Made by a program: the position numbers and the translations under genes
Notes under the pieces: model-generated
Database searches by the model: none
Told to the model about the DNA's origin: nothing
The model's input: only the letters and a program-made list of their open reading frames with translations
Part shown: positions 2,929-27,042 of the stretch, in pieces
Position numbering within the stretch: position 1 is the stretch's first letter
Layout of the letters: each line of letters begins with the position of its first letter
Origin: an uncultured Eubacterium sp.
GTDB taxonomy: Bacteria > Bacillota > Clostridia > Oscillospirales > Acutalibacteraceae
Assembly (NCBI GenBank): GCA_902462495.1
Contig: CABQCC010000001.1
Coordinates: forward strand, 1-42,500
Direction of reading: 5' to 3'
Length of the DNA: 42,500 nt

Positions 2929-2957
2929 TTGAAAGAACGCTCAATTTTTGGTAAACT
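2929..2957 (+). promoter_or_regulatory. Candidate sigma70-type promoter for tex
   Basis: TTGAAA-N17-TAAACT with TGn extended -10, about 30 bp upstream of ATG 2987. Confidence 0.5.
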
Positions 2958-2986
2958 GAATGTATCACACAAAAAAGGAAGTAACT

Positions 2987-6549: not shown

Positions 6550-6575
6550 CAAAATTTATCCCTTAAACTTTTTGC

Positions 6576-12600: not shown

Positions 12601-15600
12601 CAAGCTGTTTGCAACGATAGAGCCTGCAATGCTCATTTCGCCGTTGTTGACAACATTAGATTTAAATGTTGCGCCATACGAAGTGCATTGGAACTTTGCA
12701 TTTGCCGAGTTCACAACACTTCCTTTAAAGGTTGCATCGCTGTCAATCTTTAATTCATTATTGTTTGTAACAGTATTGAATTTGGCAATTCCGCTGATAT
12801 GCAAAATACTGTTATTTTCCAAATCTTCAACAGTGCAAGTGTTGTCAACTCTGATTTCGCCATCTGTATTGTTGAGGAGTTTTCCGTTCACAACAAGATT
12901 GTTTGCCTGAATCTTGCCCATATTTGTGAGATTTTTTACAGTAAATGTAGCAGGACAAATAATCTTGCTGTCTTTCTTGTTTTCTACGGTTGTAAATTTA
13001 AAATCACCGCTGACATAGATTTCTCCGCCTGTTGAACGGGAAGCACTGTATTCATTGACGATTTTGTTGCCCTCTGCACTGCCGATAACCTGAATTGTCT
13101 TGTGGTTATTGATTGTTCCCGTGCAAACGAGCTTTCCGTTAAAGCCCGGATTTGTTGAAACTTTTGCCACACCAATCAAAGTATCGCTGAAATTGTCGAA
13201 TGTGCCTGAAACTTCAAGAGTATTTGTAACAAGGAATTCGCCGTAGTTTTTGATGTCCTTGGCAGTACAGTTGCTGACAACCAAAAGCTTTTTGCCCTCT
13301 TTGATTTCAATCTCGTCGGCTGACTCGATTTTGTTGATAGAAGCGTTTGCATCTATAACAAGTTTTGTTGCTTTGATGCTGTCAATATAAACCGAAGTTC
13401 CGTCCTTGATTGTGAGGGTGTTAACTGTGATACTGCTGTCCTTTGGAATGCAGAAGCCGCCGCCCTGTTCGATTGTAAGGTCGTTGATATTAAGACCTGG
13501 TGCAGAAAGGAAGCTTCCGTTATAAAGTGTATAGTTGCCGTTGCTCTTTTGGAAGCCTGAAATTGTACCTGTTGCGCCAAGCGCAAAGACTTTGTTTTCA
13601 GGGCTTGTTTTGAATACAAGACCTCCGCAGTTAGAGATTGATTGTCCTGAAGTATTGTTGCCAAGGATAAGTTTTACACCCGGATTGAAAGTGAGCGTCT
13701 TGCTGTCCTGAAGATAGATTTCTTCTGATGCAAAAATGTGAGCATTTTCTGCAAACTCGGTTGTTCTGACATCCATCTTTTGACAGATAACATTGCCGAA
13801 CAGCGAAGTATATTCTGTCTTGACCTTGTTACTCTTAATCATATCGGTAACAATGAGGGAACCCTTTTCGCAATTATATCTTGTTGCGTTTATTCTATGC
13901 TTCTTGTCACCTTGAGTAACAAGCACAGAACCTGTTTTCATACTAAGGGTGTAATCACCGCTTACATCAACAACGCCGGTTTCCGCATTGTCTTTCCATT
14001 CATCAGGTCTGTTTGCAACAACAATAGCATTTTTGCCGATAGTGATGTCGCCACTGCTTTTTGCGGAAAGGTCTCTTCCGAGATAGGTTTGAGAACCGTC
14101 GCCGAAATTCATATTTCCACTGCCGCCGTCATAGAAAATGGCTCTTTGGCAGAAAATCTTGCCGTTCATAACAATGTCTGAGCCGGAAACCTTTTTGATG
14201 TCGCCGATTGCATAGATTTGGCTACCCTTTTCAGCCGTCATTGTGTTCATAGAAACAGAGTAATTTTCTTTTGTGTTTGCTTGCTTTGAAACAACAACAG
14301 AATTTTCTCCGACAGTGAATTTTCCGCCAACTCGGATTTCAAATCCACAAATAAGCTTTGAGTTTTTACCGATAATGAGATCGTGACCGTCGACAAACAC
14401 ATGACCGTCAACAATTACGGTTGTGTTGTCGCCGATAGTCAAATCGCCATTATCCACTTCAAGGTTTCCGCCTATATGCATATAGGTAGGCTTTTCGCTG
14501 TCTGAATTATCGCCGATTACGGAATTGGCTGAACCATTTGAAATTTTAACATTATTTTTTACATAAACCGAATGTCCTGATTTAACTCTGATACCAAAGT
14601 AAGAATATGCAGGCCAAGTGCCTTTCCAAGGTTTTTCGATTTCAGAATACTTTGTTTTGTCACTAAGTTCATATTGCCACTTGTCATCATTGTATCCTTC
14701 AACCTTATATACTTTTCCGCCGTCAGTCCAGCCTGCTGTGGACTTAAGAACACGAAGTTCGGTATATTTATCGTTTACAATTTCGCCGATATCATCAGCA
14801 GTCATTTTGAAGTCCTTGCGAGTATCTACAACAATGCTGTCAACTGTTTTTTTGACAACTCCGTCCTTGCCAGGAAGCAAATCTTCGTATGTATAAGTTT
14901 TATCAACATTAACAAGTTTGTTATTTTCAAAATCAGGCTTTAGGTAATTCTTTGAAATGTTCGATGTACTTTCGGTTTCAACACTTACGCTGGTTTTGAT
15001 GTCATATCCAAGGTCAGCAAGGGTTGCGTCAACCAAAGTTCTGTATCTTGACGGAACTCTGTCAACCCTCAAATCCTCAGGGATAGTGAGTTCTGCCTCG
15101 TCGATAGCTTCGGTTTCAGCCTCAATTTTCTTAATTTGCTTGTCAAAATAAGTTTTCTTTGTGCCCGATGACATAAGGAACACATCTTCCTTTTCAGGGG
15201 CAGAATCTTCAAACTTACTGTCATTTGAAAGAGTAAGTCTGTTTTCGATATAATGCTTTTTCTTAGCTACCGCATCACTGCCATAGTGCTTGTCGTAGTC
15301 GGAAATAGTGGAATTATTATAATCGTCATCAACAAGGACATCTTCTTTTTCAAAGTTCTTTACCGCATCCTTGCCGTATTTGCTTGAATTCTTCTTTGCA
15401 TACGAATCAATAACATTTTTGGCAGAATTGAGTTTTCCGTTTTTGTCAAAAACTTTTGTGCCGTTATATGTGGTGTGACGATTGTCATTACTGCCGTACT
15501 TTTCAAGCGTGTATGTTTTGTAATCCATACTGTTTCCTGACGGATCGGTAGAAGTAAGTTTAAACTTCAAAAGCGGTGAAGTTGCTTGATTTGTAAGCAC

Positions 15601-17601
15601 ATCCGATGATGCAAAAGAATTGTCAATATAAGTGTCGGCTTTGCCTGCTTCAACTTTTGATGGGTCGTTTGTTGCGTCTGCCGCACTGTTTGAAAATGTG
15701 CCGTCTTTGTTTTCAACAGTTCCAAGAGTGTTCTTGAGATTTATGGTTTTCTCAAGTTGGTTTTGTGCTTTCTTTACGGCTTCTTTTACAGATACAGAAT
15801 CCGAAATCTCGGTGCCGTTTTCATTGTTAGAATCGTCATACTTAGATATAGTTGCGTTTCTTACAGAACGGTTTACAACTCTTACAAAATAAGGGCGCAT
15901 ATTCGGAATAGCCATAGGGCTTGCATTTTGCTTGAATGTTTTGGCAATTGCAAAGCGATAGCCTGCTTCCGCCTGCTCGGTAACTTTGCCGAGTTTGTTC
16001 ATCTGAACAACATTTCTGTTAGTGTTTTCGGCATCAATAATTTGCAATTCCGCAGTTTGGTCACTATCCGACTTAGTGAATGTGATTGTACTGTTTTCCT
16101 TGTCTATCTTTGTGCCGTCATACAAAAGCAAGCTTTCGTTGGTAGCTGTTGGGTCATAACCTACCGAAAGGAAGCCTTGGTAAAGCTCGCTCATATTTGT
16201 TGTGTTGTTTCGAATGTCCTCCATTATTTTGTTTGCCATAGCATTTGTTGTGGCATAAATAATAGACTTTTGTCCAACAAGCTGATATTTATTTTTGGAA
16301 ACATATTTAAGATTATCCGCCTGTGCAAGAACAGCATTTTTTTGCGCCTCAGGAAGATTTATGCACTCCTTTAAATAAACCTCGCCTGCTTCAAGGAAGG
16401 CTCTTCTCAAAGTCTCCTGACTTGTGATTTTATTAAAATCCATTTGGTCAATGATATAAAGAACTGCCTGTGTTTGTTCGATATACTGATAGTTTCTGAC
16501 ATAAACACGGGTGTTAAGGTCTTTTTCAGAGCCAATAACTGTTCCGACAAGAGAACCGTTTGCTATTTTGCCTGCCGAGAAATCAATCTTATTAACAGCG
16601 GAAAAATGAACTCGATTGTAGTCATCCTCGGTCTGGGTATCACCTGTACACTTTCTGAAATCTTTTTTACAAATATCACAATAGGTATTTACCGCGCCCT
16701 CGGCGCACAACGATTGACAAATACACTTTGGGCTTTTGCCATTGTAATCCGCATCTTTGCCTCGGCTTGCCTGAATTGTATTTACACCGATGCTGATGTC
16801 GGCATTTGAGTGAACATCGGAATTGATAATAGCGTGAGAAAGGCTTGCGTTTACAAGTTCGTTGTAGTTTGGCTGACCGCCAACCCAGCCAACGATTTTT
16901 TGGAAAAATTTCTCATTAACCTTATTAATAAAGTTAACGAAAATGTTTGTTATTGCCTGAGTATTGTTAGTTCTTCCGTTGATTCTGAGCGCCATTTCTC
17001 TGTAATCATCACTTGTTTTGGAAGAATTTGCGATAATGGAATACTTAAAAGCCTCAGGCATAGCATACGGTTGCATTTCGGTCTTGGCATAACCCACTCC
17101 CGTAGGGGCAATGTTAAGTCCTGAAATAGAGCTAAAAAAGCCTTTAAGCTTTACTTTGATGGAAATTTTTATGCAGGCATAATCCATATAAGAACCCTCA
17201 AGTTCCCTATCGTCATCCTGATTTTCTTCCCAAATACCGCCTTTTCTTTCAACGGTAACAGTTGCACCCGGGTCGTCGTTGCTTCCGTATTTAATTACGG
17301 TTTTTGATGCAGTAGATTCGCCCTCGTCCACAACACCCTCGCCGTACTCGGTAATGTCAAAGCGATTCTTGCTCATATAAGTTTCAACATTTTTCTGTAT
17401 ATCGGAATCATCGCCGATATTTTCAATCTCGTGCATAACAGAATATGTTGTAGCATCTACCGCATTTTGCAATTTTGCCCATTGATAATAAGTCATACCA
17501 ACATCTATAATCAATGCGAGAACAGACAAAAGTGCAAGACTGGCGAATATAGAAATAAGCGCTATATCGCCGTTTTCGTTGCGTCTAAACAATTTTTTCA
17601 A
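6625..17601 (-). CDS. Giant (~3660 aa) TadG-type pseudopilin / putative pilus adhesin with beta-solenoid repeats and Cys-rich modules
   Basis: N-terminus KKLFRRNENG|DIALISIFASLALLSVLALIIDVGMTYYQWAKLQNAVDA matches the TadG-like prepilin pattern (basic leader, Gly, hydrophobic helix, DxG...LQNAxDA). Last gene of the tad cluster; uninterrupted 11-kb frame. SD GAGGAG abuts GTG 17610, so TTG 17601 is the likelier start. Confidence 0.85.
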   Translation of the reverse strand: MKKLFRRNENGDIALISIFASLALLSVLALIIDVGMTYYQWAKLQNAVDATTYSVMHEIENIGDDSDIQKNVETYMSKNRFDITEYGEGVVDEGESTASKTVIKYGSNDDPGATVTVERKGGIWEENQDDDRELEGSYMDYACIKISIKVKLKGFFSSISGLNIAPTGVGYAKTEMQPYAMPEAFKYSIIANSSKTSDDYREMALRINGRTNNTQAITNIFVNFINKVNEKFFQKIVGWVGGQPNYNELVNASLSHAIINSDVHSNADISIGVNTIQASRGKDADYNGKSPKCICQSLCAEGAVNTYCDICKKDFRKCTGDTQTEDDYNRVHFSAVNKIDFSAGKIANGSLVGTVIGSEKDLNTRVYVRNYQYIEQTQAVLYIIDQMDFNKITSQETLRRAFLEAGEVYLKECINLPEAQKNAVLAQADNLKYVSKNKYQLVGQKSIIYATTNAMANKIMEDIRNNTTNMSELYQGFLSVGYDPTATNESLLLYDGTKIDKENSTITFTKSDSDQTAELQIIDAENTNRNVVQMNKLGKVTEQAEAGYRFAIAKTFKQNASPMAIPNMRPYFVRVVNRSVRNATISKYDDSNNENGTEISDSVSVKEAVKKAQNQLEKTINLKNTLGTVENKDGTFSNSAADATNDPSKVEAGKADTYIDNSFASSDVLTNQATSPLLKFKLTSTDPSGNSMDYKTYTLEKYGSNDNRHTTYNGTKVFDKNGKLNSAKNVIDSYAKKNSSKYGKDAVKNFEKEDVLVDDDYNNSTISDYDKHYGSDAVAKKKHYIENRLTLSNDSKFEDSAPEKEDVFLMSSGTKKTYFDKQIKKIEAETEAIDEAELTIPEDLRVDRVPSRYRTLVDATLADLGYDIKTSVSVETESTSNISKNYLKPDFENNKLVNVDKTYTYEDLLPGKDGVVKKTVDSIVVDTRKDFKMTADDIGEIVNDKYTELRVLKSTAGWTDGGKVYKVEGYNDDKWQYELSDKTKYSEIEKPWKGTWPAYSYFGIRVKSGHSVYVKNNVKISNGSANSVIGDNSDSEKPTYMHIGGNLEVDNGDLTIGDNTTVIVDGHVFVDGHDLIIGKNSKLICGFEIRVGGKFTVGENSVVVSKQANTKENYSVSMNTMTAEKGSQIYAIGDIKKVSGSDIVMNGKIFCQRAIFYDGGSGNMNFGDGSQTYLGRDLSAKSSGDITIGKNAIVVANRPDEWKDNAETGVVDVSGDYTLSMKTGSVLVTQGDKKHRINATRYNCEKGSLIVTDMIKSNKVKTEYTSLFGNVICQKMDVRTTEFAENAHIFASEEIYLQDSKTLTFNPGVKLILGNNTSGQSISNCGGLVFKTSPENKVFALGATGTISGFQKSNGNYTLYNGSFLSAPGLNINDLTIEQGGGFCIPKDSSITVNTLTIKDGTSVYIDSIKATKLVIDANASINKIESADEIEIKEGKKLLVVSNCTAKDIKNYGEFLVTNTLEVSGTFDNFSDTLIGVAKVSTNPGFNGKLVCTGTINNHKTIQVIGSAEGNKIVNEYSASRSTGGEIYVSGDFKFTTVENKKDSKIICPATFTVKNLTNMGKIQANNLVVNGKLLNNTDGEIRVDNTCTVEDLENNSILHISGIAKFNTVTNNNELKIDSDATFKGSVVNSANAKFQCTSYGATFKSNVVNNGEMSIAGSIVANSLFENNNFVCSNNQCYFNNLQNNEKGVVSICAFKTIYVEGSKSGSNIINYGVIETYGGSFGNDMNTLVNNGDFVSNVNIKDFGNILNYGKFECFGTLQGETAGCAFNNFGKVYCHSNVSVSGTITNGTIDNHDALFFVSASTSSEIYAYHIDNYADFFAHDINVRVVDTFSSYKGSRIYVDKGNISTKKFEINAKCSLKYNGSFTISETLVNRTKLKLTKISAQKIENEGTLFIDSGSKDFQIQYIWNKAGANFAFAGPRELQFTGYDSNSISLFNEGNMYVNGNIVASGAIHATAGELYVYGDADVSNSVSYSVDGVKNNVYMEGSAELYVYGDVPLSDKSDGMMIAENPDADAEKAVYSVYGYQGLTAKNSHNSGLINCYQTGAQLYFGGNLNVTPPDFISNKNTQTVKGSMYVYGEYTCPLLMSFYIEDGGVVYIKDNVKCAVTTDLYLENFAGIYCFGNSVRFYSITANKSYVYLLKIKNGNEVVTYPGIVTLTNASVLFTPQNARIPSTKLYKSSDSFYAPDPNAYVSISENNFRADGVRIVTSGNVQVEGEITIKEGQMLCANNIRFTNGGKLNVKGTLYVTGKIYYKDGSTTSSLSNIEDRIAFTGPKADVFIGRTKSGELEFNKELNAFGEQTLFFDNDIIVNGNLANNSKSKGGIGGNNLVPHRGEAIIVEGNSNLYVTGDVFSNGKNNNLGNAVYVGENCSLSCGGAFYSDSAIYNFGKFYVFGEFVNYKKADGTEEADARTWPTDKGDSNYKEGKSILNGSSNNRNASIYIGGYIDRDKGIVSKNTIIFVGYLQNYGKINIMQDVYIKGYNSCSYLWMRTIGEDPYSVYSTMNDKWGAKASIVAEQGSRANFGGNVAMFAGYVTFNRDTTGKKEEMPVFSAEGDATYGQIILNGGIFYAKHQVGYTGEVGFTKNVNKLGEADAFGNYEIRSLWIRYYRTGTALAGDWKGTYSIVNGFAFYPERKGDYSAPVKEAVFFAGGDLVVGTSEKESAQEKIGGTIQNYGKMYVDGCMKSYSYENYAINYVAISAQVGSSTFVSGELFSNSGTLTMRNSMLMCDGNFISKRCARIGISEKANSEDDLNSSSYLYVGGNMAISTNGQGGAGDLAGSWGGVSTWNYFDVFSNANIYVGGSFFTNSIFTPHKNLTFIVDGLDKGGVNTTTNFITWLQNRVTNLSLKIDGYNLDNFKFVVNNRFDVQATLREGRTKTMLNRFYVHGSALLNDRARISDMTKFYVYGDLVNRTDVLGKITAFEIGRALNVSDDGDTWASKGTFVDDEDEPRFIQKDGEKVQNPKFDYNYANACYLYVQGKLDLDRKVNIYPGTTIRTGKDYTPRGMVKLMHDTSVYSGGKIATHRYIDVGQYSEIFAKDNINAWNYVCVREHGTIFSGGDIKCGTSFEAKTSAIVYACGSIKATLGKINIADKTKVFCAGNMTALRYIELGKYDAKYKDTLRYETPKSGDNVCTCTGHCTNDDYDKDCPICGNASKPADACKAPYECICSELCTDGNFNNDCPVCNGTHGSDWHSCKAENPDNSDDKVCICTSKCSKANPDCPVCKGDFSKCAIADENAEELKNDLLDDYTDKADGGEFYIGKALVSYLGYIRQYGFSSTTVGKYVFANRYITLRSNSDMWVLPEAYENDTYKHVDANFESDGTVGGEIIKNLKLFAYNLKDKLSFKNGSIYAMGDFTLNKNASVMGTHDLLTFGKVLLCHDSLAYFGHDFKCSTPSLDLVGGIKGDGYSGFVSRGDVYTTLRCKNKAKHPHGYVVYTKNYDPNKTYKCDKCGALLDKKTLRKNVTCPVTIYANNNITISTSTEMRMSYLVACKGDVSISDPFYNASENDDNNLYQLPNAIAAYRGNITYNAIYGKMSALFYAPHGAVTFDGFYQEIWGSVIGDTVDIKTFYINIHRFENWRNMDLQLLESGKVYLISKEEFDNMENNVSSEYVALGNSKAENKGGAYMFFDEKILDNKSNGTGQGTELDTTG
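7891..8190 (-). repeat. Three tandem six-Cys protein modules (C-x-C-x3-C-x6-8-C-x2-C-x6-10-C)
   Basis: CTCTGHC..DCPIC..C, CICSELC..DCPVC..C and CICTSKC..DCPVC..C in the translation (about aa 3141-3240 of the 3661-aa ORF). Confidence 0.9.
16648..16725 (-). repeat. Single N-proximal copy of the six-Cys module
   Basis: CICQSLCAEGAVNTYCDICKKDFRKC (about aa 296-321); shares CKxDFxKC with the last C-terminal copy. Confidence 0.85.
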
Positions 17602-17648
17602 AGCAATCACTCCTCTTGCTTACAGGCTGTTACTTGTTTAGGCAGAAA

Positions 17649-18296
17649 CTATTGAACATCCTCTGCCTTTGAATGTGCAAGCGACAACTCGGTTTGAAGT
17701 CTGAAAATCAAATCCTCGCACTTGTCGATTGCTTCCTCGTATATTTTTGAAATTTGAATAAAGCGTTCGTCGGTTACATTTGTGTAGTTTTCCTCGGCGC
17801 TTGTTCTCAAATTGTTGATTTCCGAACGATTTTTGTCAACCTTTTTTGTAAGATGTGCAACATCTCTCTTGAGGTCCTCGTTTTCCTTGGTGAGCTTTCT
17901 GTTTTCATCACCCAGAAGTCTGTGTTTGCTAAACAAAGCGTCATATTTTTCCTGCAATTCTTTTAGTTGAGAATCGTCAACAACTTTAACCGCCTTAGGA
18001 GCTTCGTTGATTTTTTTCATCAATCTTTCTTTTTCTTCAGTTGCAAATTCATTTTTTGCGGTAAGGCTCTTAACCTGCTCCTTGAGTTCATTAACCTCGT
18101 ATTCAAGCATAGAATTTGTGTTTCTGAGGTCCTTGACCTGATTGTCAAAATTCTCCGAAGCATTCTTTTGCACATTGATAAGGTTTGAGATATATTCGTC
18201 AACCTGTGCGGTGTCATAGCCTCTGAGGGACTTGTCAAATTCCACCTTGTTTGTACCTAAAATTTGGCTTCTGTCTACGATTTCTTTGTTACTCAT
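17649..18296 (-). CDS. DivIVA-domain coiled-coil protein
   Basis: N-terminal VEFDKSLRGYDTAQVDEYI matches the DivIVA/GpsB motif F...xRGYdxxEVDxF; remainder is a long heptad coiled coil. Confidence 0.8.
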   Translation of the reverse strand: MSNKEIVDRSQILGTNKVEFDKSLRGYDTAQVDEYISNLINVQKNASENFDNQVKDLRNTNSMLEYEVNELKEQVKSLTAKNEFATEEKERLMKKINEAPKAVKVVDDSQLKELQEKYDALFSKHRLLGDENRKLTKENEDLKRDVAHLTKKVDKNRSEINNLRTSAEENYTNVTDERFIQISKIYEEAIDKCEDLIFRLQTELSLAHSKAEDVQ

Positions 18297-18322
18297 TGTT
18301 CAATTCTCCACTCCGAAATAAT

Positions 18323-18667
18323 TTATTTGAATATCAGAACATCCCCGACATTTATGCCGAGTTGTTCAGCAGTTCCCGCATTCAGTTCAAGGATTTTTTT
18401 TGCGTTTTTAACCTTTTTTCTGACCTTATGCGGAGGAACGGCAGGGTCGATAAACAGCACCCTATTGTCCTTGTCAAGTGCGACGGTATCTATGGAAAAC
18501 CGCATACCGAAAGTGTGAATTTCGTCACACGGTGTAAGAAGCAAGCCGTGATTTTCTGCCATATTCTTGCGGTACATCAAGCCCATAAATCTGCGCACAA
18601 AATGATTTGCGTTTTCAACTTCTTCTACAAGGAGCTTGTCACCCTTGTATGCTTTTAACATTTTCAT
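18323..18667 (-). CDS. DUF192 family protein
   Basis: VEEVENANHFVRRFMGLMYR...GLLL...IHTFGMRFSIDTVALD...ILELNAG...INVGD motif set. Confidence 0.85.
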   Translation of the reverse strand: MKMLKAYKGDKLLVEEVENANHFVRRFMGLMYRKNMAENHGLLLTPCDEIHTFGMRFSIDTVALDKDNRVLFIDPAVPPHKVRKKVKNAKKILELNAGTAEQLGINVGDVLIFK

Positions 18668-18669
18668 AA

Positions 18670-19611
18670 TTAGAATAATCCGCCTTTAAACTGATCCATT
18701 ACCTGAATAATAACCGGACCCATAATAATACAAATGATAGCCGGCAAAATCAAAAGAACGGTAGGGATAGTCATCTTTGTCGGAACTTTTGCAGCTTCTT
18801 CTCTGATTTTTTCTCTCTTTGCAACACGGAGCTGTTCAGACTGTGCGGCAAGTACATTTGTAATCGGAATACCGAGAGTATTTGCCTGAATAACGGCTGA
18901 AACAAAGGTTTTCAGCTCATCAACATCTGTTGAATCCGAAAGTGCTTTAAGTGCGTCGTTTCTGCTTTTACCAAGTTGAATTTGCTTGAATACGGTTACA
19001 AGTTCATCAATAAGCGGACCTTCCATACGCTCGGACACCTTGAGAAGCGAGGCGTCAAAGCTAAGACCTGCCTCCATACAAACGCTGAGGAGGTCAAGTG
19101 TGTCGGGAAGCTGTGCTCTGATTGCGTCCTGATGGCTTTTGATTTTTTGCTTCAAAATAAAGGTTGGTGCAAGCACCGAAAGCATTGAGCCGACAACAAT
19201 TACAAGCCAAAAATAGCTTGTTACATCCATCAACAACACGCCGATACCCGTAAAAACGATTGTGCCGACGATTGCAACGGCAGTTTTGAGATAAGTAAAA
19301 CTGCCTGTCGACATATGAAGTCCTGCCTTGCGAAGCTGAAGAGCAAGCTTTTGAGTTTCCTGTCTTTTACGAGCGGATTTTGTCTGCTTATTGCCCTGGT
19401 CGTCAAGGTTTGAAAGTTTTTTAACAAGCGGCTTGATGTTACGGTCGTAGAATGAGGTTTCTATGTTTTTGTATTCTGCGGTAACAGCCTCTTTGTCGAT
19501 AGACTTCATTCTTTTGAGGTTGTTGTCCTCTTCTTTACCCTTTTTGCCGAATATTGCTATGCACAAAACCAAAATAAGCAAAGCATATGTAATTACCAAT
19601 AAAGCTACCAT
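18670..19611 (-). CDS. tadC: Tad platform protein TadC (T2SS-F family)
   Basis: QLPDTLDLLSVCMEAGLSFD, LGKSRNDAL, EEAAKVPTKMTIP; several TM helices; follows tadB. Confidence 0.92.
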   Translation of the reverse strand: MVALLVITYALLILVLCIAIFGKKGKEEDNNLKRMKSIDKEAVTAEYKNIETSFYDRNIKPLVKKLSNLDDQGNKQTKSARKRQETQKLALQLRKAGLHMSTGSFTYLKTAVAIVGTIVFTGIGVLLMDVTSYFWLVIVVGSMLSVLAPTFILKQKIKSHQDAIRAQLPDTLDLLSVCMEAGLSFDASLLKVSERMEGPLIDELVTVFKQIQLGKSRNDALKALSDSTDVDELKTFVSAVIQANTLGIPITNVLAAQSEQLRVAKREKIREEAAKVPTKMTIPTVLLILPAIICIIMGPVIIQVMDQFKGGLF

Positions 19612-19621
19612 AATGTTTCTC

Positions 19622-20593
19622 CTACATCTTTATGCTTACAATCTTCTTTACGGCGATGAAGCAAAGAACTTCAAGACCTATCGCAATACCCAAGAATATG
19701 TGTCCTGTGCTTGTTGTGAAAAGCGGCATAATGAATTCTTTGTTTACAAAATAGAACAACACGCAAAGTGCAATCGGCATTGAACCTACCATAACGGCGG
19801 TTGACCTGCCCGAAGCGGTTGACGCTTTAAGTTCTTGCTTGAGTTTCATTTTTTCCTTGATAGAGTTTGCAATACCCTCCAAAATTGACGAAAGGTTACC
19901 GCCTGTTTGTCTTTGGATAAGCACCGATGAAACCATAAGCGGCAAATAGTCGCTGTTGATTCTCTTATTGAGTCGTTCAAGCGCTTCTTCCATAGGCATA
20001 CCCATTGTCATTTCTTCAAGAACAATAGCAAATTCCGAAGCAATAGGGTCGGGCATATCTCTTGAAATAGCTTCCATTGCCTGAGTGAAGCTCAAACCTG
20101 CACGAAGCGAACTGCAAGAAATCATCAAAGCGTCCGAAAGCTGAACATCAAACTTTTTAACTCTTTGTTTTTGCTTGATTTTTATAAGTACGAACGGGAT
20201 AAACGCACCTACAACGGTTGCGCCGAGTGCAACAGGTGCAAGGCTCTCCGAAATAAGAAGAATAAACAAAGCCGGCAAAACCGAAATGATTATCCAAATC
20301 AGCAAGAATTCTTCGGGACGCATCTTGATGTCCGCACTTTGAAGCTGACCGTAAAGGGCAGAACCGATTTTTACAAAAAAGCTGTTTTGACCATCTTTTT
20401 TCTTGCGTCTTTTTTTCTTGCTTTTAACAAGAGCAACCTCTGTGTAGCCCTCCTGCTTTTTCAATTCTTCCATTCTTTTGTCTGCGGCAATCTTTGAAGA
20501 GCCTAAGGTATAAGACAAAATGTAGGCAATAACAAAAGCCAAAAGAGCAAATGCTGCGGTAATTAAGATTATACTAATCGTTGAACCAGTCAT
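19622..20593 (-). CDS. tadB: Tad platform protein TadB
   Basis: QLSDALMISCSSLRAGLSFTQA, DPIASEF, IQRQTGGNLSSIL; overlaps the tadA end by 20 bp. Confidence 0.93.
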   Translation of the reverse strand: MTGSTISIILITAAFALLAFVIAYILSYTLGSSKIAADKRMEELKKQEGYTEVALVKSKKKRRKKKDGQNSFFVKIGSALYGQLQSADIKMRPEEFLLIWIIISVLPALFILLISESLAPVALGATVVGAFIPFVLIKIKQKQRVKKFDVQLSDALMISCSSLRAGLSFTQAMEAISRDMPDPIASEFAIVLEEMTMGMPMEEALERLNKRINSDYLPLMVSSVLIQRQTGGNLSSILEGIANSIKEKMKLKQELKASTASGRSTAVMVGSMPIALCVLFYFVNKEFIMPLFTTSTGHIFLGIAIGLEVLCFIAVKKIVSIKM

Positions 20594-21932
20594 TGTTAAC
20601 CACTACTCCGTTTTCTCTTATTTTTTCAACACATTTAGGGATGATGCCTGTCGGCTTAAATGTACCCTTGAACTTACCGTTTGAGTCATATTCACCCTCT
20701 GTTTCGTAGGTGAATATATCCTGCATTCTGACAACATCTCCCTCCATACCGACAAGTTCGGAAATAGAGGTTACTTTTCTTGAACCGTCACGCAAACGAG
20801 CCTGCTGAACAATGAGGTTGATAGCTGACGAAACCTGGTCTCTGATAGCCTTTGACGGCAATTCGGAACCCGACATCATAACCATTGTTTCTATACGGGA
20901 AATCGAGTCCCTCGGTGAGTTGGCGTGAATGGTGGTGAGTGAGCCGTCGTGACCCGTGTTCATTGCCTGAAGCATATCCAATGTTTCTTCGCTACGAACC
21001 TCACCTACGATGATACGGTCGGGTCTCATACGAAGTGAGTTTACAACGAGGTCTCGGATACTGATTCTACCCTTGCCCTCCATATTTGCCGGACGGGCTT
21101 CGAGAGTCAGAACATGCTCCTGATGAAGTTGAACTTCGGCTGAGTCCTCGATTGTGATAATTCTTTCATCCGACGGAATGTATGACGAAAGTACATTAAG
21201 AAGTGTTGTTTTACCCGAACCTGTACCACCCGATACAATTATATTAAGTTTGCCTTTTACCGCTGCTTCCAAAAATTCGAGCATTTTCGGCGAAACCGAA
21301 CCCCATTTTACAAGGTTTTCGGCTGTGATAGGTGTTTTGCCGAACTTACGAATTGTAAGAATCGGACCTACGAGCGAAAGAGGCGGAATAATTACATTTA
21401 CACGAGAACCGTCAAGCAAACGGGCGTCACACATCGGGCTTGATTCGTCAACATGTCTGCCTACTTTTGATACGATTCGGTCGATAATTTGCATAAGATG
21501 TGCGTCATCTTTGAACTGAATGTCAGTAAGGACAAGCTTACCGTGTGATTCAACATAAACATGGTCGTGACCGTTTACCATAATTTCCGAATATTGGTCG
21601 CTGTCGATAAGCGGTTGAATCGGACCGTAGCCCATAATATCGTCAAACAATTCTTTTTTGACAACCTCTCTGTCAACTCTTGCAATATTAAAATCCGGTC
21701 GTTCAACATATTCGTCAATGAGTTTTCTCATTCCCTCATCAGAAATGTCGGCATTGTCCGCACCGAGCTGTTGCTCGATAATCAATGCGTGAATTCTGAT
21801 TTTAACCTCTGCGTATCTGTCCTCAAGAACAGGTTTGATTTTTTCTGCGCTGTCAAGAGGATTGCTTGTTTGCGGTGAGGAAATGCCCTCGGAAATGTCG
21901 GGTGTTGAACCGTATCTGTTAAGTAGTCCCAT
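20574..21932 (-). CDS. tadA: Tad pilus assembly ATPase TadA/CpaF
   Basis: EIMVNG, DESSPMCDARL, Walker A GGTGSGKTT, TIEDSAE, LRMRPDRIIVGEVR, AMNTGHDGSLTTIHANS. Confidence 0.97.
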   Translation of the reverse strand: MGLLNRYGSTPDISEGISSPQTSNPLDSAEKIKPVLEDRYAEVKIRIHALIIEQQLGADNADISDEGMRKLIDEYVERPDFNIARVDREVVKKELFDDIMGYGPIQPLIDSDQYSEIMVNGHDHVYVESHGKLVLTDIQFKDDAHLMQIIDRIVSKVGRHVDESSPMCDARLLDGSRVNVIIPPLSLVGPILTIRKFGKTPITAENLVKWGSVSPKMLEFLEAAVKGKLNIIVSGGTGSGKTTLLNVLSSYIPSDERIITIEDSAEVQLHQEHVLTLEARPANMEGKGRISIRDLVVNSLRMRPDRIIVGEVRSEETLDMLQAMNTGHDGSLTTIHANSPRDSISRIETMVMMSGSELPSKAIRDQVSSAINLIVQQARLRDGSRKVTSISELVGMEGDVVRMQDIFTYETEGEYDSNGKFKGTFKPTGIIPKCVEKIRENGVVVNNDWFND

Positions 21933-21963
21933 TTATGTATCTTCTTTCATTTGTAATTATAGA

Positions 21964-23166
21964 TTATTTTGAGAAAAGTCCTTTTTTCTTGCCCTTGGCA
22001 GATTTTGCAAGACCCTCCTTGCCCTCACGCTCCATAATTACCTTGTCGGCAAAAGCATTAAGTTCTTTTGCGAACGGTGATCTCGGTTTGTATGAAACGG
22101 CAGGCTGACCGCTATTGAGCGAGTCGTTGATTGTTTTGAGGTCGCTGGAGAAAATAGCGTAAGCCTCCATATTCAAAATATTTTCGTAGTCGCTGATTTT
22201 TACATTGTTTTTCTTGGTGTTCTTGTTGATAACAAGCTTTACTTTGTCTGCCTGATTGATTTGGTACAAAACATTTTGGCAAAGCTTTGCACGCTTAAGG
22301 GACAAAATATTAACATCGTTTACCATAAAAATGGTGTCGCTTGATTCAAGCGCTGTGATGACAGGGTCGGTGAGAATGCAACCGCAGTCAAGGATGATGT
22401 ATTCATAATTATTTCTTGCAACATCAATGATAGCCTTGACATGACCTGCCTGAACGTACTCGGCAAGTTCGGGTGATGACGGAGAAGCAAGCACCGAAAG
22501 ACCCGAAGCGTGAGTTACGGAACAATTTGTGATATTGTCAATTGATATGCCGAGCGAATCTCTTACAACATCAACGATGGTTTCTGTCGGGTTGAGGTCA
22601 AGCGCCATATCCGAGTCGCCAAACTGGAGGTCAAGGTCAACAAGGAGAGTTTTTTTGCCACGGCTTGCAAGATTGACTGCAAGGTTGGTGGAAATTGTTG
22701 TTTTTCCGACACCGCCTTTTCCGCTGAAAAACGCATAAACATGCGACCTTGTTTTTCGCTCAACATTGATTTTTTTGCTGAGCTTTCTTTCGCTGTTGAT
22801 TACGCCTTCAAGATTTTTTGTAAGGTCCTCAGGCTTGATGTCGAGGCTCATAACCTGACGGACACCGTAGCGAGCAGCCGTGTTTACAAGGTCAACCGTT
22901 ACATCATCGGTCATTACAACAGGTGAGCAACCGTTTGAGGCAAGTTCCATATCCTCGATAAATGCAAAAAATTCTTCGTCAATATCAGCACTTTCCGCTG
23001 CAAAAATTACAACATCCGGTGAATAACCCAAAATTCTTGTTTTGGCTTCGGTGTTGAATTCGCTGTAGCCTATGATTTCAAGTTTTTCCGGGTCAATTTT
23101 GTTTTTGATATTTACCTTGATGTCGGTTTGCTCGGCGCAAACGACAACGCTTATTATGTCAGACAT
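21964..23166 (-). CDS. tadZ: TadZ/CpaE: receiver-like domain plus MinD/ParA-type ATPase
   Basis: N-terminal receiver-like fold without the acidic residues; SGKGGVGKTT, LVDLDLQFGD, YIILD; C-terminal KKKGLFSK candidate membrane-targeting tail. Confidence 0.9.
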   Translation of the reverse strand: MSDIISVVVCAEQTDIKVNIKNKIDPEKLEIIGYSEFNTEAKTRILGYSPDVVIFAAESADIDEEFFAFIEDMELASNGCSPVVMTDDVTVDLVNTAARYGVRQVMSLDIKPEDLTKNLEGVINSERKLSKKINVERKTRSHVYAFFSGKGGVGKTTISTNLAVNLASRGKKTLLVDLDLQFGDSDMALDLNPTETIVDVVRDSLGISIDNITNCSVTHASGLSVLASPSSPELAEYVQAGHVKAIIDVARNNYEYIILDCGCILTDPVITALESSDTIFMVNDVNILSLKRAKLCQNVLYQINQADKVKLVINKNTKKNNVKISDYENILNMEAYAIFSSDLKTINDSLNSGQPAVSYKPRSPFAKELNAFADKVIMEREGKEGLAKSAKGKKKGLFSK

Positions 23167-23204
23167 AAAAGTTTCTCCTTTTGTTTTGTGTTTTCCAAAA
23201 AATA

Positions 23205-23909
23205 TTATTTAGCATTCGCAGGTGCTGTTGTCGGAGCATTGTTTCTATGCTTCAAAACAAGCTTGAACGAATTTTCATTTTCGATTTTATAAAGTGCAAG
23301 TGCCTGCTTTTCCGTTACCTGAACGGTGAGTGTGCTGTACTCGGTAAGGGTTGTGCCCGAAGCGGAAGCATTCTTGCTGGCAGTAGCTGTTGAAACTCTC
23401 ATAATAGGAAGATTTTTGTAAGCAACCTTTGATTTTTTGGTTTCTGCATCATAGACCAAAACATCAACCTTGTCGCCCTCGTTGATGTAGCCGTCAACAC
23501 TTGTTACGCTTCCTGCACTGAAAGAATAAGCAACCTTGCCCTTTGGAAGTTTGAGCGAAAGAGCAACATCCGCACCGTTGAGATCCTCAACTCTTTTGAC
23601 ATTGATCGGTTCGCCTGCATAAAGCGGGTCAACAGTTACCTTGCCGACAAGCTGGCTTTGATCTGTTGCAACATTTTCTGCATTAACATCGGAAGCAACA
23701 ACTGTTTTCTTTGTGAAAATGCCTGCGTCCTCAGCAAACATTTCCTCGGTGATGCTTGAGTTTTGAGCCAAATCGTTTACAGGAACGATAATCTCAACCG
23801 TATCGGCATCCTTGATTGTTGTCTTTTTGTCGATTTCACTTGCAAAGAAATATGTAGCGAAGCCTGCGATTAATGCAAAAATAACTGCGATTAAATAAAC
23901 TTTTTTCAT
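23205..23909 (-). CDS. cpaB: Flp pilus assembly protein CpaB/RcpC
   Basis: N-terminal TM; SAF-like segment (LVGKVTVDPLYAGEPI); LPKGKVAYS...VDGYINEGDKVDVLV...TLTVQVTEKQALAL. Confidence 0.9.
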   Translation of the reverse strand: MKKVYLIAVIFALIAGFATYFFASEIDKKTTIKDADTVEIIVPVNDLAQNSSITEEMFAEDAGIFTKKTVVASDVNAENVATDQSQLVGKVTVDPLYAGEPINVKRVEDLNGADVALSLKLPKGKVAYSFSAGSVTSVDGYINEGDKVDVLVYDAETKKSKVAYKNLPIMRVSTATASKNASASGTTLTEYSTLTVQVTEKQALALYKIENENSFKLVLKHRNNAPTTAPANAK

Positions 23910-23963
23910 TTTGTTCTCCTTTTATGAAAGCTTTGTGTTGACAAAACTTTTATTTATTATCTA

Positions 23964-23985
23964 AGAGAGCAAATATATGCTCTCT
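23964..23985 (-). other. Stem-loop between tadE and cpaB
   Basis: AGAGAGCA-aatata-TGCTCTCT perfect 8-bp stem; no U-tract on the coding strand. Confidence 0.55.
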
Positions 23986-24020
23986 AATAAATTATTATAT
24001 ATAAATATTAAGTCGGCAAA

Positions 24021-24701
24021 TCAGTCGCCGTCGTTTTCATCTGCACGGAAAGTGAGATTTTCCTCAACCTTATAAACAGATTTGCAAGCAAGGTTACGAG
24101 TCATTCTGCTTTCTCCCGGCTTTGCATCCCAATTTACAAGTGGAGTAATGGCGTGATGAACACCTCTTACAATTACCGTCACATCACCGTTTGAACGGCT
24201 TGCCGGGGTGTAGGGTTCAAGCCCTGTTGCCGTATAATCTTGGTCTTCTGAATAAGACACGGTGACCGTAACTTTGTCAAACTCCTTTGGAACAGTTCTT
24301 TGCACCTGCAACAAAACTCGTCTTTCTTGGTCGGAAATACCCAAATTTTGCATCTTCTGAACCCGCTCGGAAGAAGTGAGATTTCCGTCAAGAACAGACT
24401 TATAAGTGTCAAGGGTATAAGTTCTTTGGTATTTTCCGCTTCCCGGATCGCCGTCTACTTTACCTTCCACATAAGGCGTGCCGTCATTTTTCAAAGCAAC
24501 CTGAGTGTACTCAACACAGGCAATACGAGCGGCATTTCTTGCGGAATTTTCAACAGAAATCTGATGATAAAAAAGCCATCCGAAATCAAAGGTCATAGCC
24601 AATATAAGCATAAATATGGGAAAGACCAACACAAATTCAAGCATTGACTGTCCGTCCTCTGCCTTTCCCTTTCGCAAAAGGCGATTATAAATTTTTTTCA
24701 A
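24021..24701 (-). CDS. tadE: TadE-family pseudopilin
   Basis: AEDG|QSMLEFVLVFPIFMLILAMTFDFG...VENSARNAARIA; TTG start with GAGGTG SD. Confidence 0.9.
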   Translation of the reverse strand: MKKIYNRLLRKGKAEDGQSMLEFVLVFPIFMLILAMTFDFGWLFYHQISVENSARNAARIACVEYTQVALKNDGTPYVEGKVDGDPGSGKYQRTYTLDTYKSVLDGNLTSSERVQKMQNLGISDQERRVLLQVQRTVPKEFDKVTVTVSYSEDQDYTATGLEPYTPASRSNGDVTVIVRGVHHAITPLVNWDAKPGESRMTRNLACKSVYKVEENLTFRADENDGD

Positions 24702-24761
24702 GAGAATTCACCTCTTAATACTTATTTACAATAATTTAACATTATGTCCAATTATGAATAG

Positions 24762-24783
24762 TGGGGCAGGAAATCCTGCCCCA
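24762..24783 (-). terminator. GC-rich stem-loop downstream of flp (leaky terminator or mRNA stabiliser)
   Basis: TGGGGCAGGA-aa-TCCTGCCCCA perfect inverted repeat 33 bp after the flp stop; weak U-tract on the minus strand. Confidence 0.7.
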
Positions 24784-24816
24784 AAATCATTTTGAGTTTT
24801 TACGAAAAACAGACCG

Positions 24817-24990
24817 TTAATCTGCAATATTATCAAGCTGATTAATTTGACCTTCAGCCTTATTCTTGATCTTGCCAGTCTTCTTATTGATGAGAATAAG
24901 AACTGCTACGAGAACCAATGCAATAAGTGCGATAATAAGAACATACTCAAGCATGCCCTGACCGTTTTCGTCTTTGATAAACTTCATCAT
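24817..24990 (-). CDS. flp: Flp major pilin (57 aa), not in the ORF track
   Basis: Hand translation MMKFIKDENG|QGMLEYVLIIALIALVLVAVLILINKKTGKIKNKAEGQINQLDNIAD*; Flp motif G|Q-x3-E-Y; strong SD AAAGGAG. Confidence 0.95.
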   Translation of the reverse strand: MMKFIKDENGQGMLEYVLIIALIALVLVAVLILINKKTGKIKNKAEGQINQLDNIAD

Positions 24991-25025
24991 AATAATTTAC
25001 TCCTTTATATTAATTTATTTATGAT

Positions 25026-25724
25026 TTAGAATAGCATAACTTCAATTTGCCCAATTGTTTTTTCGATAATCGGGAAGCAAACAGAAATTACTGAACTTAA
25101 AGAGATTAGCGGGCCGAGGGGAATCAAAGTTTTGAGTCCGCCCTTTTTGGTTGCCTTGAGATAAATTAGGCAAACAATGGCGAGCAATCCCACAAGTATC
25201 ATTGATTGGAGAAATGCGGTGAAATAAATACACAAGCCGAGGACGGCACAGTATTTTGTGTCACCGGCTCCAACCGGTACTTTGAGCAGAGTGGTGAATG
25301 CACAAGAAGCAAATCCTATGAAAAAACCGAACCCTGCGGTCAGCAGTATAGATACATCCTTTTGAGTGATGCAATAGTATGTAAGGTACACTGCTTGAAT
25401 TATTATCATAAGCAGAAGCAGAGGATTTGGAATTTTCCTAACCAACGAATCCACAACTGCTATTGATGCGATTGGAATGAGGAGCAACTCGTTTCTTACT
25501 GCGAGCGCCGTGTCCGTTGAGGTCAGCATAATTGCCACGGAAGCAACTATTCCGACGAGTATCGACATCACCTTGAAAAGCGGTGTGTCAATCGGTGCGG
25601 CTTTGACGGGGTCATCCGTTCGTTTGAGCGTCAGCTTTTTTGAAAGGAAAATTGTGACAACTCCGAGAATTAAGCCCCAGCCTGCTCCGATTAATAACTT
25701 AATCAAAATTGAATCTGTAAACAT
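25026..25724 (-). CDS. tadV: A24 prepilin peptidase TadV/CpaA
   Basis: Multi-TM; catalytic Asp motifs VVDSLVRKIPN and VGAGDTKY; IPLGPLI; no N-terminal Cys-rich methylase domain; directly upstream of flp. Confidence 0.88.
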   Translation of the reverse strand: MFTDSILIKLLIGAGWGLILGVVTIFLSKKLTLKRTDDPVKAAPIDTPLFKVMSILVGIVASVAIMLTSTDTALAVRNELLLIPIASIAVVDSLVRKIPNPLLLLMIIIQAVYLTYYCITQKDVSILLTAGFGFFIGFASCAFTTLLKVPVGAGDTKYCAVLGLCIYFTAFLQSMILVGLLAIVCLIYLKATKKGGLKTLIPLGPLISLSSVISVCFPIIEKTIGQIEVMLF

Positions 25725-25890: not shown

Positions 25891-27042
25891 TTAATATTTC
25901 ACGGTGTATTTTTTGATTTCAAACTCGGAATTATTGTACATTGCAAGTTTCCTGTCAAAATCCTCCTGCGCTTTTTGGCTCTTTTTTTCGTTGCAATACT
26001 TCAATTTACGGTCGTCAAGGTCTGCCTCATAGAACATAAATTTGCCACCCTTGGATTCCGCTTTTGCAAACTGATGTATGAGTTTTTCGCCTTTTTTCAC
26101 ATCTGTGAACTCAATTTCGGTTGAATCAAAATACAAAGCAAACTCTGCGTCTGCTCCTGTTACGCCTGCTCCGCTTTTGAAATTCTTTTCCATCACATAA
26201 TTATATGCTTCAAGCGGAGTGGAGTTGCTTGATTTTTGTGCAAAAGTAACAGAATAGTCTTTTTTTGTTGATATATCCTGCGCCACCATTCGTGCACATT
26301 TATCTACTACAGGAGAAATGCCTGCTTCGGCGAGAGCCTGCATCCAACCGAGCCAGCCATAAAGGGCGGTATATCGTTCAACGCTGATGACTGCACCGTC
26401 ATCGGTCAAATTATTTGCGATAGCTGTTGCAAGAGAAGAAAAAGCCTGCTGATAAGCGTTTTCTCTTTCGCTTCTTTCGCCGATAACGCTCACACCGCTT
26501 GTCTGTTTTTGTGCAATGTCAAGAAGCCCTCTGAACGAAGTGGCAACACTTGCCTTTTCGTCAAGCACAAAATCGTATATATCCGCTGTGACAAATTCCG
26601 CATTTGAAAGACCGAGTCTTTCGGCAAGCACCTTGGCATTGTTGACGGCAAGTTCGTTTTTGTCCACGCCGACAACACGACACTCCGGATACTGCTGTGC
26701 GATGAAGCAAGTGACAAGACCGCAATCGCAGCCGACATCAAGCACCGTGCCGTGAAAATACTCCGCACTGTCAATAATCATATTGCCAAGATGCCTGAAA
26801 AGTCCGCTGTCAAATGCGGCAGAAACGCAAAGCGAACCGTCAAGCGACTTGTTTTTCAATCGATAAAAATATTCGTTATCCGAATTTTGACCCTGCGCTC
26901 TTGAATTGAGAGTTTCGGCAAGCTCCTTGACATAGCCCTTGTCGGTTTTCATCATAAGATTTGCCAAAAAGTCGTTTGTGTTTTTGTAATACTTCAGGTC
27001 AAGCGCCTGCATATAATTGTCTACCTGCTCATAAGTTTGCAT
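25891..27042 (-). CDS. Class I SAM-dependent methyltransferase, substrate unknown
   Basis: Motif I VLDVGCDCG, VVGVD, FVTADI; extra N- and C-terminal regions. Confidence 0.85.
   Translation of the reverse strand: MQTYEQVDNYMQALDLKYYKNTNDFLANLMMKTDKGYVKELAETLNSRAQGQNSDNEYFYRLKNKSLDGSLCVSAAFDSGLFRHLGNMIIDSAEYFHGTVLDVGCDCGLVTCFIAQQYPECRVVGVDKNELAVNNAKVLAERLGLSNAEFVTADIYDFVLDEKASVATSFRGLLDIAQKQTSGVSVIGERSERENAYQQAFSSLATAIANNLTDDGAVISVERYTALYGWLGWMQALAEAGISPVVDKCARMVAQDISTKKDYSVTFAQKSSNSTPLEAYNYVMEKNFKSGAGVTGADAEFALYFDSTEIEFTDVKKGEKLIHQFAKAESKGGKFMFYEADLDDRKLKYCNEKKSQKAQEDFDRKLAMYNNSEFEIKKYTVKY

Follow-up and report, generated by a model that had tools for sequence, protein, structure and literature searches.

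A DivIVA/GpsB-domain coiled-coil protein encoded within the Tad pilus operon of an uncultured Eubacterium

In Caulobacter, the Cpa pilus is positioned by polar scaffolds, and PodJ and PopZ-ZitP-CpaM are the polar factors for these pili. GpsB, a protein of approximately 100 to 115 amino acids, is an adaptor that docks the cytoplasmic tails of membrane proteins and is a plausible model for the protein described here. DivIVA is a binding partner of ParA/MinD-type ATPases in mycobacteria (Ginda 2013, as cited in PMC10482377), and titles in the reference list of PMC10482377 describe TadZ as polar in Aggregatibacter. Bulleidia extructa's tad operon, together with those of Helcococcus ovis and some Erysipelotrichales, is reported to end with a gene for a 112-amino-acid DUF192 protein and a coiled-coil gene of unexplained role (PMC12786226, 2025). 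According to that paper, the two genes consistently adjoin tad genes and only an Smc-like similarity of the coiled-coil protein is noted; this was the nearest printed statement that we found. Here, we analyzed a 42,500-nt stretch of DNA from an uncultured Eubacterium sp. (CABQCC010000001.1, assembly GCA_902462495.1), called the window below, and all coordinates are window positions. An open reading frame (ORF) in its tad operon, at 17649-18296 on the minus strand, encodes a 215-amino-acid protein with a DivIVA-type head, which we named DivL. Conservation and genomic context show DivL to be a dedicated accessory subunit, predicted to be cytoplasmic, of the monoderm Tad (type IVc) pilus machine.

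The locus was compared with the described systems. Like the B. subtilis Min system (DivIVA-MinJ-MinD-MinC), it encodes a DivIVA-type protein together with a MinD-type ATPase, TadZ. It differs in that no family match to MinC, MinE, or MinJ was found among the window ORFs scanned, TadZ scored far below the MinD cutoffs, and there was no sign of FtsZ regulation. An earlier reading made from the letters of this DNA (the sequence-only reading) had described a possible Min-like positioning module for pili, which was an overstatement given the missing Min partners and an N-terminal domain no further from GpsB than from DivIVA. The resemblance to the Gram-negative Tad/Cpa polar organizers lies in the idea that a scaffold or landmark sets the site of a TadZ/CpaE-dependent pilus machine. 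However, these organizers, which have no sequence relation to DivL, are polarity factors of general use with genes elsewhere, whereas the gene for DivL is found only inside the pilus operon. The Bulleidia operon, which was compared by description only, is likewise Gram-positive and has a DUF192 protein of about 112 amino acids followed by a coiled-coil protein; in contrast to the window, the pair ends the operon, TadG is encoded elsewhere in the operon, and no DivIVA domain is noted (PMC12786226).

DivL in the tad operon

A genome scan seeded with DivL, with one genome per species, yielded 51 loci. The DivL of one locus (L001) was 100% identical to ours, and its contig is presumably that of the window; the next (L002) was from Eubacterium coprostanoligenes ATCC 51222 (NZ_FUWW01), with 95% identity. 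Wherever the contig reached, the operon slot of DivL was identical in all 51 loci, so that the linkage with tad genes and a giant gene expected by the sequence-only reading held. The DUF192 gene lay directly upstream of DivL in 49/51 loci, the other two of which begin inside DivL, and a gene for a giant TadG-like protein lay directly downstream in 50/51, the contig of the remaining locus ending there. The genes tadC, tadA, and tadZ were matched in 47, 44, and 41 of the 51 loci, respectively, and the loci that lacked a match all did so where the contig ends, except one (L036). The median gaps were 2 bp between tadC and DUF192 (n = 47), 21 bp between DUF192 and DivL (n = 47), and 39.5 bp between DivL and the giant gene (n = 50). 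A hidden Markov model of the N-terminal domain found exactly one DivL-type ORF per source (52/52; the 51 loci plus the window).

The median ratio of nonsynonymous to synonymous substitution rates (dN/dS) of DivL was 0.044 (13 usable pairs among the ten closer genomes), compared with 0.063 to 0.097 for tadZ, tadA, tadB, and tadC and 0.067 for DUF192. Judged by these ratios, DivL is under strong purifying selection. The fixed operon slot and the low dN/dS thus indicate a dedicated Tad accessory rather than a stray division gene, and we consider it very likely that DivL is a Tad-dedicated DivIVA-domain protein.

Two of the loci looked damaged. In L036 (1-2122 and 5160-7484), tadA was cut to 186 amino acids beside unrelated genes on the opposite strand and the giant ORF stopped at 774 amino acids. 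In L049 (2756-3873 and 7550-8029), a single draft contig of a metagenome-assembled genome (MAG), tadZ was frameshifted and DivL carried an internal deletion that removed its central block. Both cases could be draft-assembly errors or decaying operons, and no conclusion was drawn from L049.

In the window, the minus strand at 6625-25724 carries a single tight gene array in the order tadV-flp-tadE-cpaB-tadZ-tadA-tadB-tadC-DUF192-DivL-giant. DivL and its domains, followed by the other genes in order from tadV, are listed below with the family matches on which each assignment is based.

17649-18296, minus strand: DivL, 215 amino acids, DivIVA/GpsB-domain coiled-coil protein (ORF and domain scans)
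18054-18248, minus strand: DivL residues 17-81, DivIVA/GpsB-type N-terminal domain with a short helix, the L24-R25-G26-Y27-D28 turn, and the start of the long helix (matches to Pfam DivIVA, NCBIfam GpsB, and TIGR03544)
17658-17741, minus strand: DivL residues 186-213, near-invariant family-specific C-terminal helix (alignment columns)
25026-25724, minus strand: tadV, the first operon gene, for a prepilin (type IV leader) peptidase (Pfam Peptidase_A24, 27.8 bits; cutoff, 26.5)
24817-24990, minus strand: flp, Flp-type major pilin, 57 amino acids, with GQGMLEYVLIIALIAL inside (G/MLEY site; Flp_Fap, 29.1 bits, E = 8.6e-7, under the cutoff of 32.2)
24021-24701, minus strand: tadE-like minor pilin, 226 amino acids (Pfam TadE, 53.7 bits; cutoff, 22.9)
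23205-23909, minus strand: cpaB/rcpC, 234 amino acids, with a single N-terminal hydrophobic segment (TIGR03177, 83.2 bits; cutoff, 71; Pfam RcpC, 49.3 bits)
21964-23166, minus strand: tadZ/cpaE, ParA/MinD-type ATPase of 400 amino acids, with an extra N-terminal domain and a basic C-terminal tail (AAA_31, 70.7 bits; CbiA, 55.3 bits)
20574-21932, minus strand: tadA/cpaF, secretion ATPase, 452 amino acids (Pfam T2SSE, 218.3 bits; TIGR03819 "TadA family," 314 bits, under the cutoff of 373)
19622-20593, minus strand: tadB, platform protein, 323 amino acids (Pfam T2SSF, 70.4 bits; 20-bp overlap with tadA)
18670-19611, minus strand: tadC, platform protein, 313 amino acids (Pfam T2SSF, 62.1 bits)
18323-18667, minus strand: DUF192 protein, 114 amino acids, without a hydrophobic segment (PF02643, 74.1 bits; begins 2 bp past tadC)
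6625-17610, minus strand: giant TadG-like surface protein, 3661 amino acids (Pfam Tad PF13400 on the N-terminal 400 amino acids)

All the components by which a Tad system is recognized were found, namely, TadA/CpaF, two T2SSF proteins, TadZ/CpaE, Flp, TadV, TadE/TadG pseudopilins, and CpaB. The operon is a full and regular monoderm Tad (type IVc) system. From tadZ to the giant gene, the intergenic gaps were, in order, 31, -20, 10, 2, 26, and 38 bp, and a GGAG-containing stretch, GGAGTGGAG, precedes the ATG of DivL. Because no terminator-like site was found on the minus strand in the interval from tadC to the giant gene, DivL is probably cotranscribed with the tad operon. A GC-rich hairpin is located 3' of flp (24762-24783), and a terminator-like hairpin (25864-25846) separates tadV from the upstream methyltransferase gene. 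The layout agreed with what the sequence-only reading had reported: the 215-amino-acid coiled-coil protein with a DivIVA motif stands between DUF192 and the giant, all three on the minus strand with gaps below 50 bp (26 and 38 bp), and its surroundings are not those of ftsZ, sepF, ylm, or ileS, none of which was found among the window ORFs scanned; there are no division genes near DivL.

The DivIVA/GpsB-type head and the C-terminal helix

The translation of DivL has FDKSLRGYDTAQVDEY at residues 20 to 35. The NCBIfam model TIGR03544 ("DivIVA domain") was passed with 27.1 bits (cutoff, 22) over residues 17 to 36. In the alignment of 24 DivL-family sequences, F20, D21, R25, G26, Y27, D28, Q31, and V32 were invariant (24/24) and position 24 was L or I, which gives the head motif F20-D21-x2-(L/I)24-R25-G26-Y27-D28-x2-Q31-V32. 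DivIVA of B. subtilis (PF05103; 2WUJ) resembles DivL in that a motif of the form F-x3-hydrophobic-R-G-Y-D-x2-(E/Q)-V is followed by a long coiled coil, and neither protein has a membrane segment. Since DivL lacks any hydrophobic segment, it is predicted to be cytoplasmic, as DivIVA is. By this likeness, DivL may act as a membrane-associated recruiting scaffold. The exposed hydrophobic-arginine pair of the DivIVA turn is present in DivL as L24-R25, a feature of the sequence only, and we take it to be the counterpart of the membrane-binding F17/R18 of B. subtilis DivIVA. The residue before the arginine is Leu or Ile in DivL, whereas it is Phe in B. subtilis DivIVA. DivL also differs from DivIVA in failing the PF05103 gathering score, in its family-specific C-terminal half, and in being encoded in a pilus operon.

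The top-scoring named relatives of the head were GpsB proteins (NF010725; 4UG1, 4UG3, and 6GP7), and the Listeria GpsB chain likewise has an L-R-G-Y turn. A PDB search with the 24-member family profile hit the GpsB N-domains 4ug1 (E = 0.0033) and 4ug3 (E = 0.0048), followed by 9pv2, 6gpz, 6gp7, and 6gqa. These six GpsB chains had E values of 0.003 to 0.06, and that of B. subtilis DivIVA (2wuj) was 0.082. However, the GpsB equivalog model NF010725 gave 33.3 bits over residues 18 to 80 against a cutoff of 91, DivL has 215 amino acids, no match to the GpsB C-terminal domain was obtained, and no gene for a penicillin-binding protein (PBP) was linked. As far as the sequence comparisons go, the head is of the DivIVA/GpsB type, with GpsB no more distant from it than DivIVA; by family cutoffs, DivL falls outside both DivIVA (Pfam) and GpsB, yet it bears a DivIVA domain.

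The AlphaFold2 model of DivL (mean predicted local distance difference test score, 80.9) was all helix, with helices at residues 20-25, 29-97, and 108-214 and a low-confidence linker at residues 98-107. Both the full-length model and that of the 80-amino-acid N-domain showed a short helix, a turn, and a long helix, as expected for a DivIVA/GpsB head, although Foldseek matched neither of them in the PDB. Conservation was highest not in the head but in the central block NRDLQRDVAHLTKKVDKNR and, above all, in the last 30 residues. The C-terminal pattern Y..A.D..EDLI.RLQTE.SLAHSKAED was the best-conserved block of the family and stayed invariant down to approximately 46% overall identity. Neither the central block nor the C-terminal helix matched any known model in Pfam or NCBIfam, and residues 108 to 215 matched generic coiled-coil models only in Pfam, NCBIfam, and the PDB profile search. 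The C-terminal helix is proposed as a candidate site for partner binding or oligomerization. Look-alikes in the ESM Atlas were only coiled-coil clusters, unnamed or labeled MbeD/MobD, at 0.88 to 0.93, with one cluster in which 19% of the members carried DivIVA, and they provided no lead.

Approximately 180 clusters at 90% identity matched DivL, with lengths of 210 to 240 amino acids, from Eubacterium, Clostridia, and Eubacteriales MAGs. The named homologues were annotated as "DivIVA domain-containing" or "hypothetical," and the PF05103 label was present on some close ones and absent from most. Among 1.84 billion representatives at 50% identity, just 12 scored below an E value of 1e-30; the family proper is therefore narrow. 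No domain fusions were found among 217 representatives with E values up to 1e-3, and plasmid searches with DivL and with one distant relative gave no matches.

Relatives of DivL and neighboring genes

The representative search also returned proteins of 190 to 370 amino acids that have in common with DivL the head, roughly the 50 residues after it, and a similarly patterned C-terminal helix. These distant relatives include the 287-amino-acid protein N5B56_06420 of Eubacterium sp. LFL-14 (P0342), MGN0530234.1 and MCI6245440.1 from a family of 226 amino acids, and MDP4109519.1. An hhalign comparison of the DivL family with 12 of these distant relatives gave a probability of 99.7% (E = 2.5e-26; 214 columns), a value that coiled-coil bias may have raised, and placed the C-terminal helix at the matching position. 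A profile search with the distant relatives recovered the same family again, and the only labels obtained from cluster look-ups were "Eubacterium sp." and "Bacillota bacterium." DivL could accordingly be viewed more broadly, as the first recognized member of a Bacillota superfamily of proteins of approximately 190 to 370 amino acids that combine a DivIVA-type head with a coiled coil and a conserved C-terminal helix. Paired with DUF192, such proteins would be operon-encoded spatial organizers of monoderm Tad pili that bring TadZ together with the motor to the septum or pole; the Bulleidia/Helcococcus pair would be the same module. We consider this extended proposal rather unlikely. If it were true, an "address label" would couple the display of the pilus and giant adhesin to the cell cycle, as a Gram-positive counterpart of PodJ and PopZ-ZitP-CpaM.

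In a single protein, P0153 (189 amino acids, on a 671-bp metagenomic contig), a DivIVA-like head was fused to the C-terminal two-thirds of DUF192. Its DUF192 fragment was 51% identical to the window DUF192 protein, and its head was identical to that of a 287-amino-acid family from "Eubacterium sp. LFL-14." It alone among 118 hits had both domains, and its halves matched separate proteins, 287 and 111 amino acids long, at 96 to 100% identity. P0153 was therefore set aside as a natural DivIVA-head/DUF192 fusion, being a singleton on a short contig and probably an assembly chimera; at most, it is a weak hint that the two genes adjoin in that organism. A plasmid of Moraxella bovis carries a Tad locus (L053) in which DUF192 (9974-10297) directly follows tadC and is itself followed by a TadE-family gene and RHS genes. 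Because DUF192 follows tadC in Moraxella as well, it appears to be a wider, uncharacterized Tad accessory, with DivL seemingly a lineage-specific addition beside it. The DUF192 protein of the window has no signal peptide.

TadZ of the window is MinD-like, as the sequence-only reading had stated, although it scored below the MinD cutoffs: matches to the MinD TIGRFAMs were 87 to 90 bits (for minD_bact, 87.2 against 212.9). The deviant Walker A sequence SGKGGVGKTT was invariant in 28/28 aligned orthologues. According to PMC10482377, TadZ of E. rectale has lost the deviant Walker A lysines, unlike the window TadZ, in which both are kept. The C terminus of TadZ is rich in Lys and Arg (ending in KGKKKGLFSK in the window). 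By analogy with the C terminus of MinD, this basic tail may bind the membrane.

Pfam Tad PF13400 matched the first 400 amino acids of the giant with 23.6 bits (cutoff, 22.3) but gave 20.1 bits in a scan of the whole protein, and a CD1107-like model matched the giant with 27.7 bits. An alignment of 50 locus rows showed a basic leader, a single hydrophobic helix, and an AKLQNAVD motif at the N terminus. The protein contains 67 cysteines, partly in clusters of the CD1107-like form CxCx3C...CxxC near residues 296-321 and 3141-3240, and has no LPXTG motif and no internal repeats by self-BLAST. Its length is 3661 amino acids in the window and 2318 to 3202 in complete ORFs elsewhere, and the sequence is poorly conserved. 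These sequence features make the giant a candidate tip adhesin, unusually large for a Tad pilus. Binding of DivL to the N-terminal tail of the giant in the manner of GpsB was considered and rejected as unlikely, because cleavage is expected to remove this tail, a class-III-type leader.

The remainder of the window carries genes for sugar-acid and fucose catabolism, tex, a sporulation gene, and others, and an Rfam scan found only a tRNA, outside the operon. Just upstream of tadV, at 25891-27042 on the minus strand, is a gene for a 383-amino-acid S-adenosylmethionine-dependent methyltransferase, which was also present in 35/51 loci, the rest of which end before it. TadV-type peptidases are not known to have the N-methyltransferase domain of PilD, and the linked methyltransferase may for that reason deserve a look. 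A 216-amino-acid ORF without a Pfam or NCBIfam match (27240-27890, plus strand) is divergent from the methyltransferase gene and was kept only in the closest relatives (L005 to L008). On the other side of the operon, 72 bp past the giant gene, a 261-amino-acid protein whose N terminus bears a hydrophobic segment and which matches no family is encoded at 5767-6552 on the minus strand; relatives in the equivalent place were found only in L011, L012, and L044.

Possible roles of DivL

By analogy with DivIVA and GpsB, we consider it quite possible, although somewhat short of an even chance, that DivL is an adaptor that fixes the site at which the Tad machine assembles. In such a mechanism, DivL would form a parallel coiled-coil dimer capped by the N-terminal head. 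The cap, with the exposed L24-R25, would attach either to the inner surface of the membrane or to the basic linkers that TadB and TadC have in the cytoplasm. A soluble Tad component, for which TadZ and TadA are the obvious candidates, would be gripped by the invariant C-terminal helix. TadZ is attractive as a partner because it is a bona fide ParA/MinD-type ATPase with an intact Walker A motif and a basic tail, and because contacts between ParA and DivIVA are documented in mycobacteria. DivL would thereby determine the site at which the TadZ-TadA-TadBC platform is put together and sends out Flp pili bearing the giant adhesin, most probably at the division septum or the young pole if DivIVA is a guide. 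The role of polar or septal landmark for TadZ and TadA that the sequence-only reading had suggested is plausible on the same analogy. Its other suggestion, that DivL directs export of the giant adhesin, was neither supported nor contradicted by the analysis. Complex prediction for a DivL dimer with TadZ gave scores of 0.00 and 0.01 (mark, 0.32), which count as evidence neither way.

Several results weigh against this adaptor role or narrow its reach. The DivIVA assignment, for which the sequence-only reading had looked to a Pfam scan, stood with TIGR03544 and did not stand with PF05103, whose specific match of 23.6 bits (E = 5.3e-5) was under the gathering score of 28. The PF05103 match covered only the N-terminal half of the domain, aligning DivL residues 17 to 81 with profile positions 8 to 68 of 131. 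The PDB matches to GpsB and DivIVA were weak (E = 0.003 to 0.08) and were mixed among generic coiled coils. Foldseek returned 0 matches in the PDB for both the full-length and the 80-amino-acid N-domain models, for which long helices are uninformative. By the tests run, the C-terminal half of DivL had no relation to the tetramerization domain of DivIVA. The Moraxella bovis plasmid locus has no DivIVA-like gene, and the function of DivL is thus not universal among Tad systems. Because DivL was the seed of the search that gave the 51 loci, the loci show it to lie always inside tad operons and not that Tad operons need DivL. Finally, all 51 loci are from one clade of Clostridia, so that the synteny partly reflects common descent.

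Other roles for DivL were weighed against the same evidence. DivL may be specific to the giant adhesin and, with DUF192, serve its biogenesis, either by holding or targeting the precursor of 2300 to 3700 amino acids or by coupling its membrane insertion to the Tad platform, instead of positioning the whole machine. The gene order is consistent with such a role, since DivL lies immediately upstream of the giant in nearly every locus at the short median gap given above, and the giant is the fastest-evolving neighbor, with lengths from 2318 to 3661 amino acids. The succession of DUF192 and a TadE-family pseudopilin in Moraxella similarly suggests that this end of the tad operon is devoted to minor pilins. 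However, DivL is predicted to be cytoplasmic, and the leader of the giant is of the ordinary class-III type (a basic stretch, Gly, and a hydrophobic helix), so that its cleavage would leave little or nothing in the cytoplasm. DivL surfaces are invariant, whereas the giant is poorly conserved, its N terminus being 25 to 60% identical outside the source contig. The Bulleidia coiled-coil gene, again compared by description only, is reported to be last in its operon, without a giant after it (PMC12786226). We regard a role confined to the giant as unlikely. A second role that appears improbable to us is that of a nonpositional coiled-coil regulator or stator, which, by binding TadA or TadZ, would govern ATPase activity, the assembly of hexamers, or extension and retraction, with the head as a generic membrane or dimer cap. 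The best conservation does fall in the central NRDLQRDVAHLTKKVDKNR block and the C-terminal helix and not in the head, and the full-length architecture is common to the family and its distant relatives by the hhalign comparison. Monoderm Tad systems are not known to have the cytoplasmic and alignment components of the PilMNO type that occur in other type IV pili, which we also counted in favor of such a regulator. Nevertheless, the DivIVA-type motif is itself invariant, indicating that the head has a specific job, and no similarity to known ATPase regulators was found in Pfam, NCBIfam, the PDB profile search, or the ESM Atlas.

The closeness of the head to GpsB raises the question of wall remodeling: the head might bind the tails of PBPs or wall hydrolases and bring remodeling enzymes to the site, so that the pilus and the giant can cross thick peptidoglycan. 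The best named models and structures for the head were those of GpsB (NF010725, 4ug1, and 4ug3), and the operon encodes no wall hydrolase of its own by Pfam and NCBIfam scans. Conserved residues of the DivL family include the Tyr in RGY and the Asp in QVD, which we assume to align with the GpsB residues that bind PBP tails. In contrast, the position of S37, which we take to be that of the second Asp of the GpsB groove, is variable in the DivL family. DivL is also twice as long as GpsB with a different C terminus, its equivalog score is far under the cutoff of 91, and no PBP gene is linked, all of which make this role very unlikely. Least credible of all would be a housekeeping DivIVA/GpsB homologue for division or sporulation that lies beside the tad genes by chance. 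The window does contain a sporulation gene, a YqfD homologue at 41803-42480; however, the slot of DivL is the same in 51/51 species-level genomes with tight gaps, the family is narrow and fails both the Pfam DivIVA and GpsB cutoffs, and division genes are missing from its vicinity.

Literature searches, judged mostly from titles and abstracts, gave no paper in which a Tad component was described as having a DivIVA domain, in agreement with the view that DivIVA is not a canonical Tad component. How Gram-positive type IV and Tad pili are sited, and what stands in for the polar landmarks and alignment proteins of Gram-negative bacteria, is largely unknown. A landmark-type protein encoded inside a pilus operon would be a compact and transferable positioning module and a new job for the DivIVA/GpsB fold. 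The analysis also provides a concrete annotation for a protein now labeled "hypothetical" or "DivIVA domain-containing," and because E. coprostanoligenes ATCC 51222 is cultured, the hypothesis is directly testable. DivL occurs in gut and rumen Clostridia of the Eubacterium coprostanoligenes group, which are abundant and in which the adhesin of 2300 to 3700 amino acids probably mediates attachment to the host or to particles. The conservation of DivL in their Tad operons suggests that these bacteria have their own device for siting the pilus and its giant adhesin.

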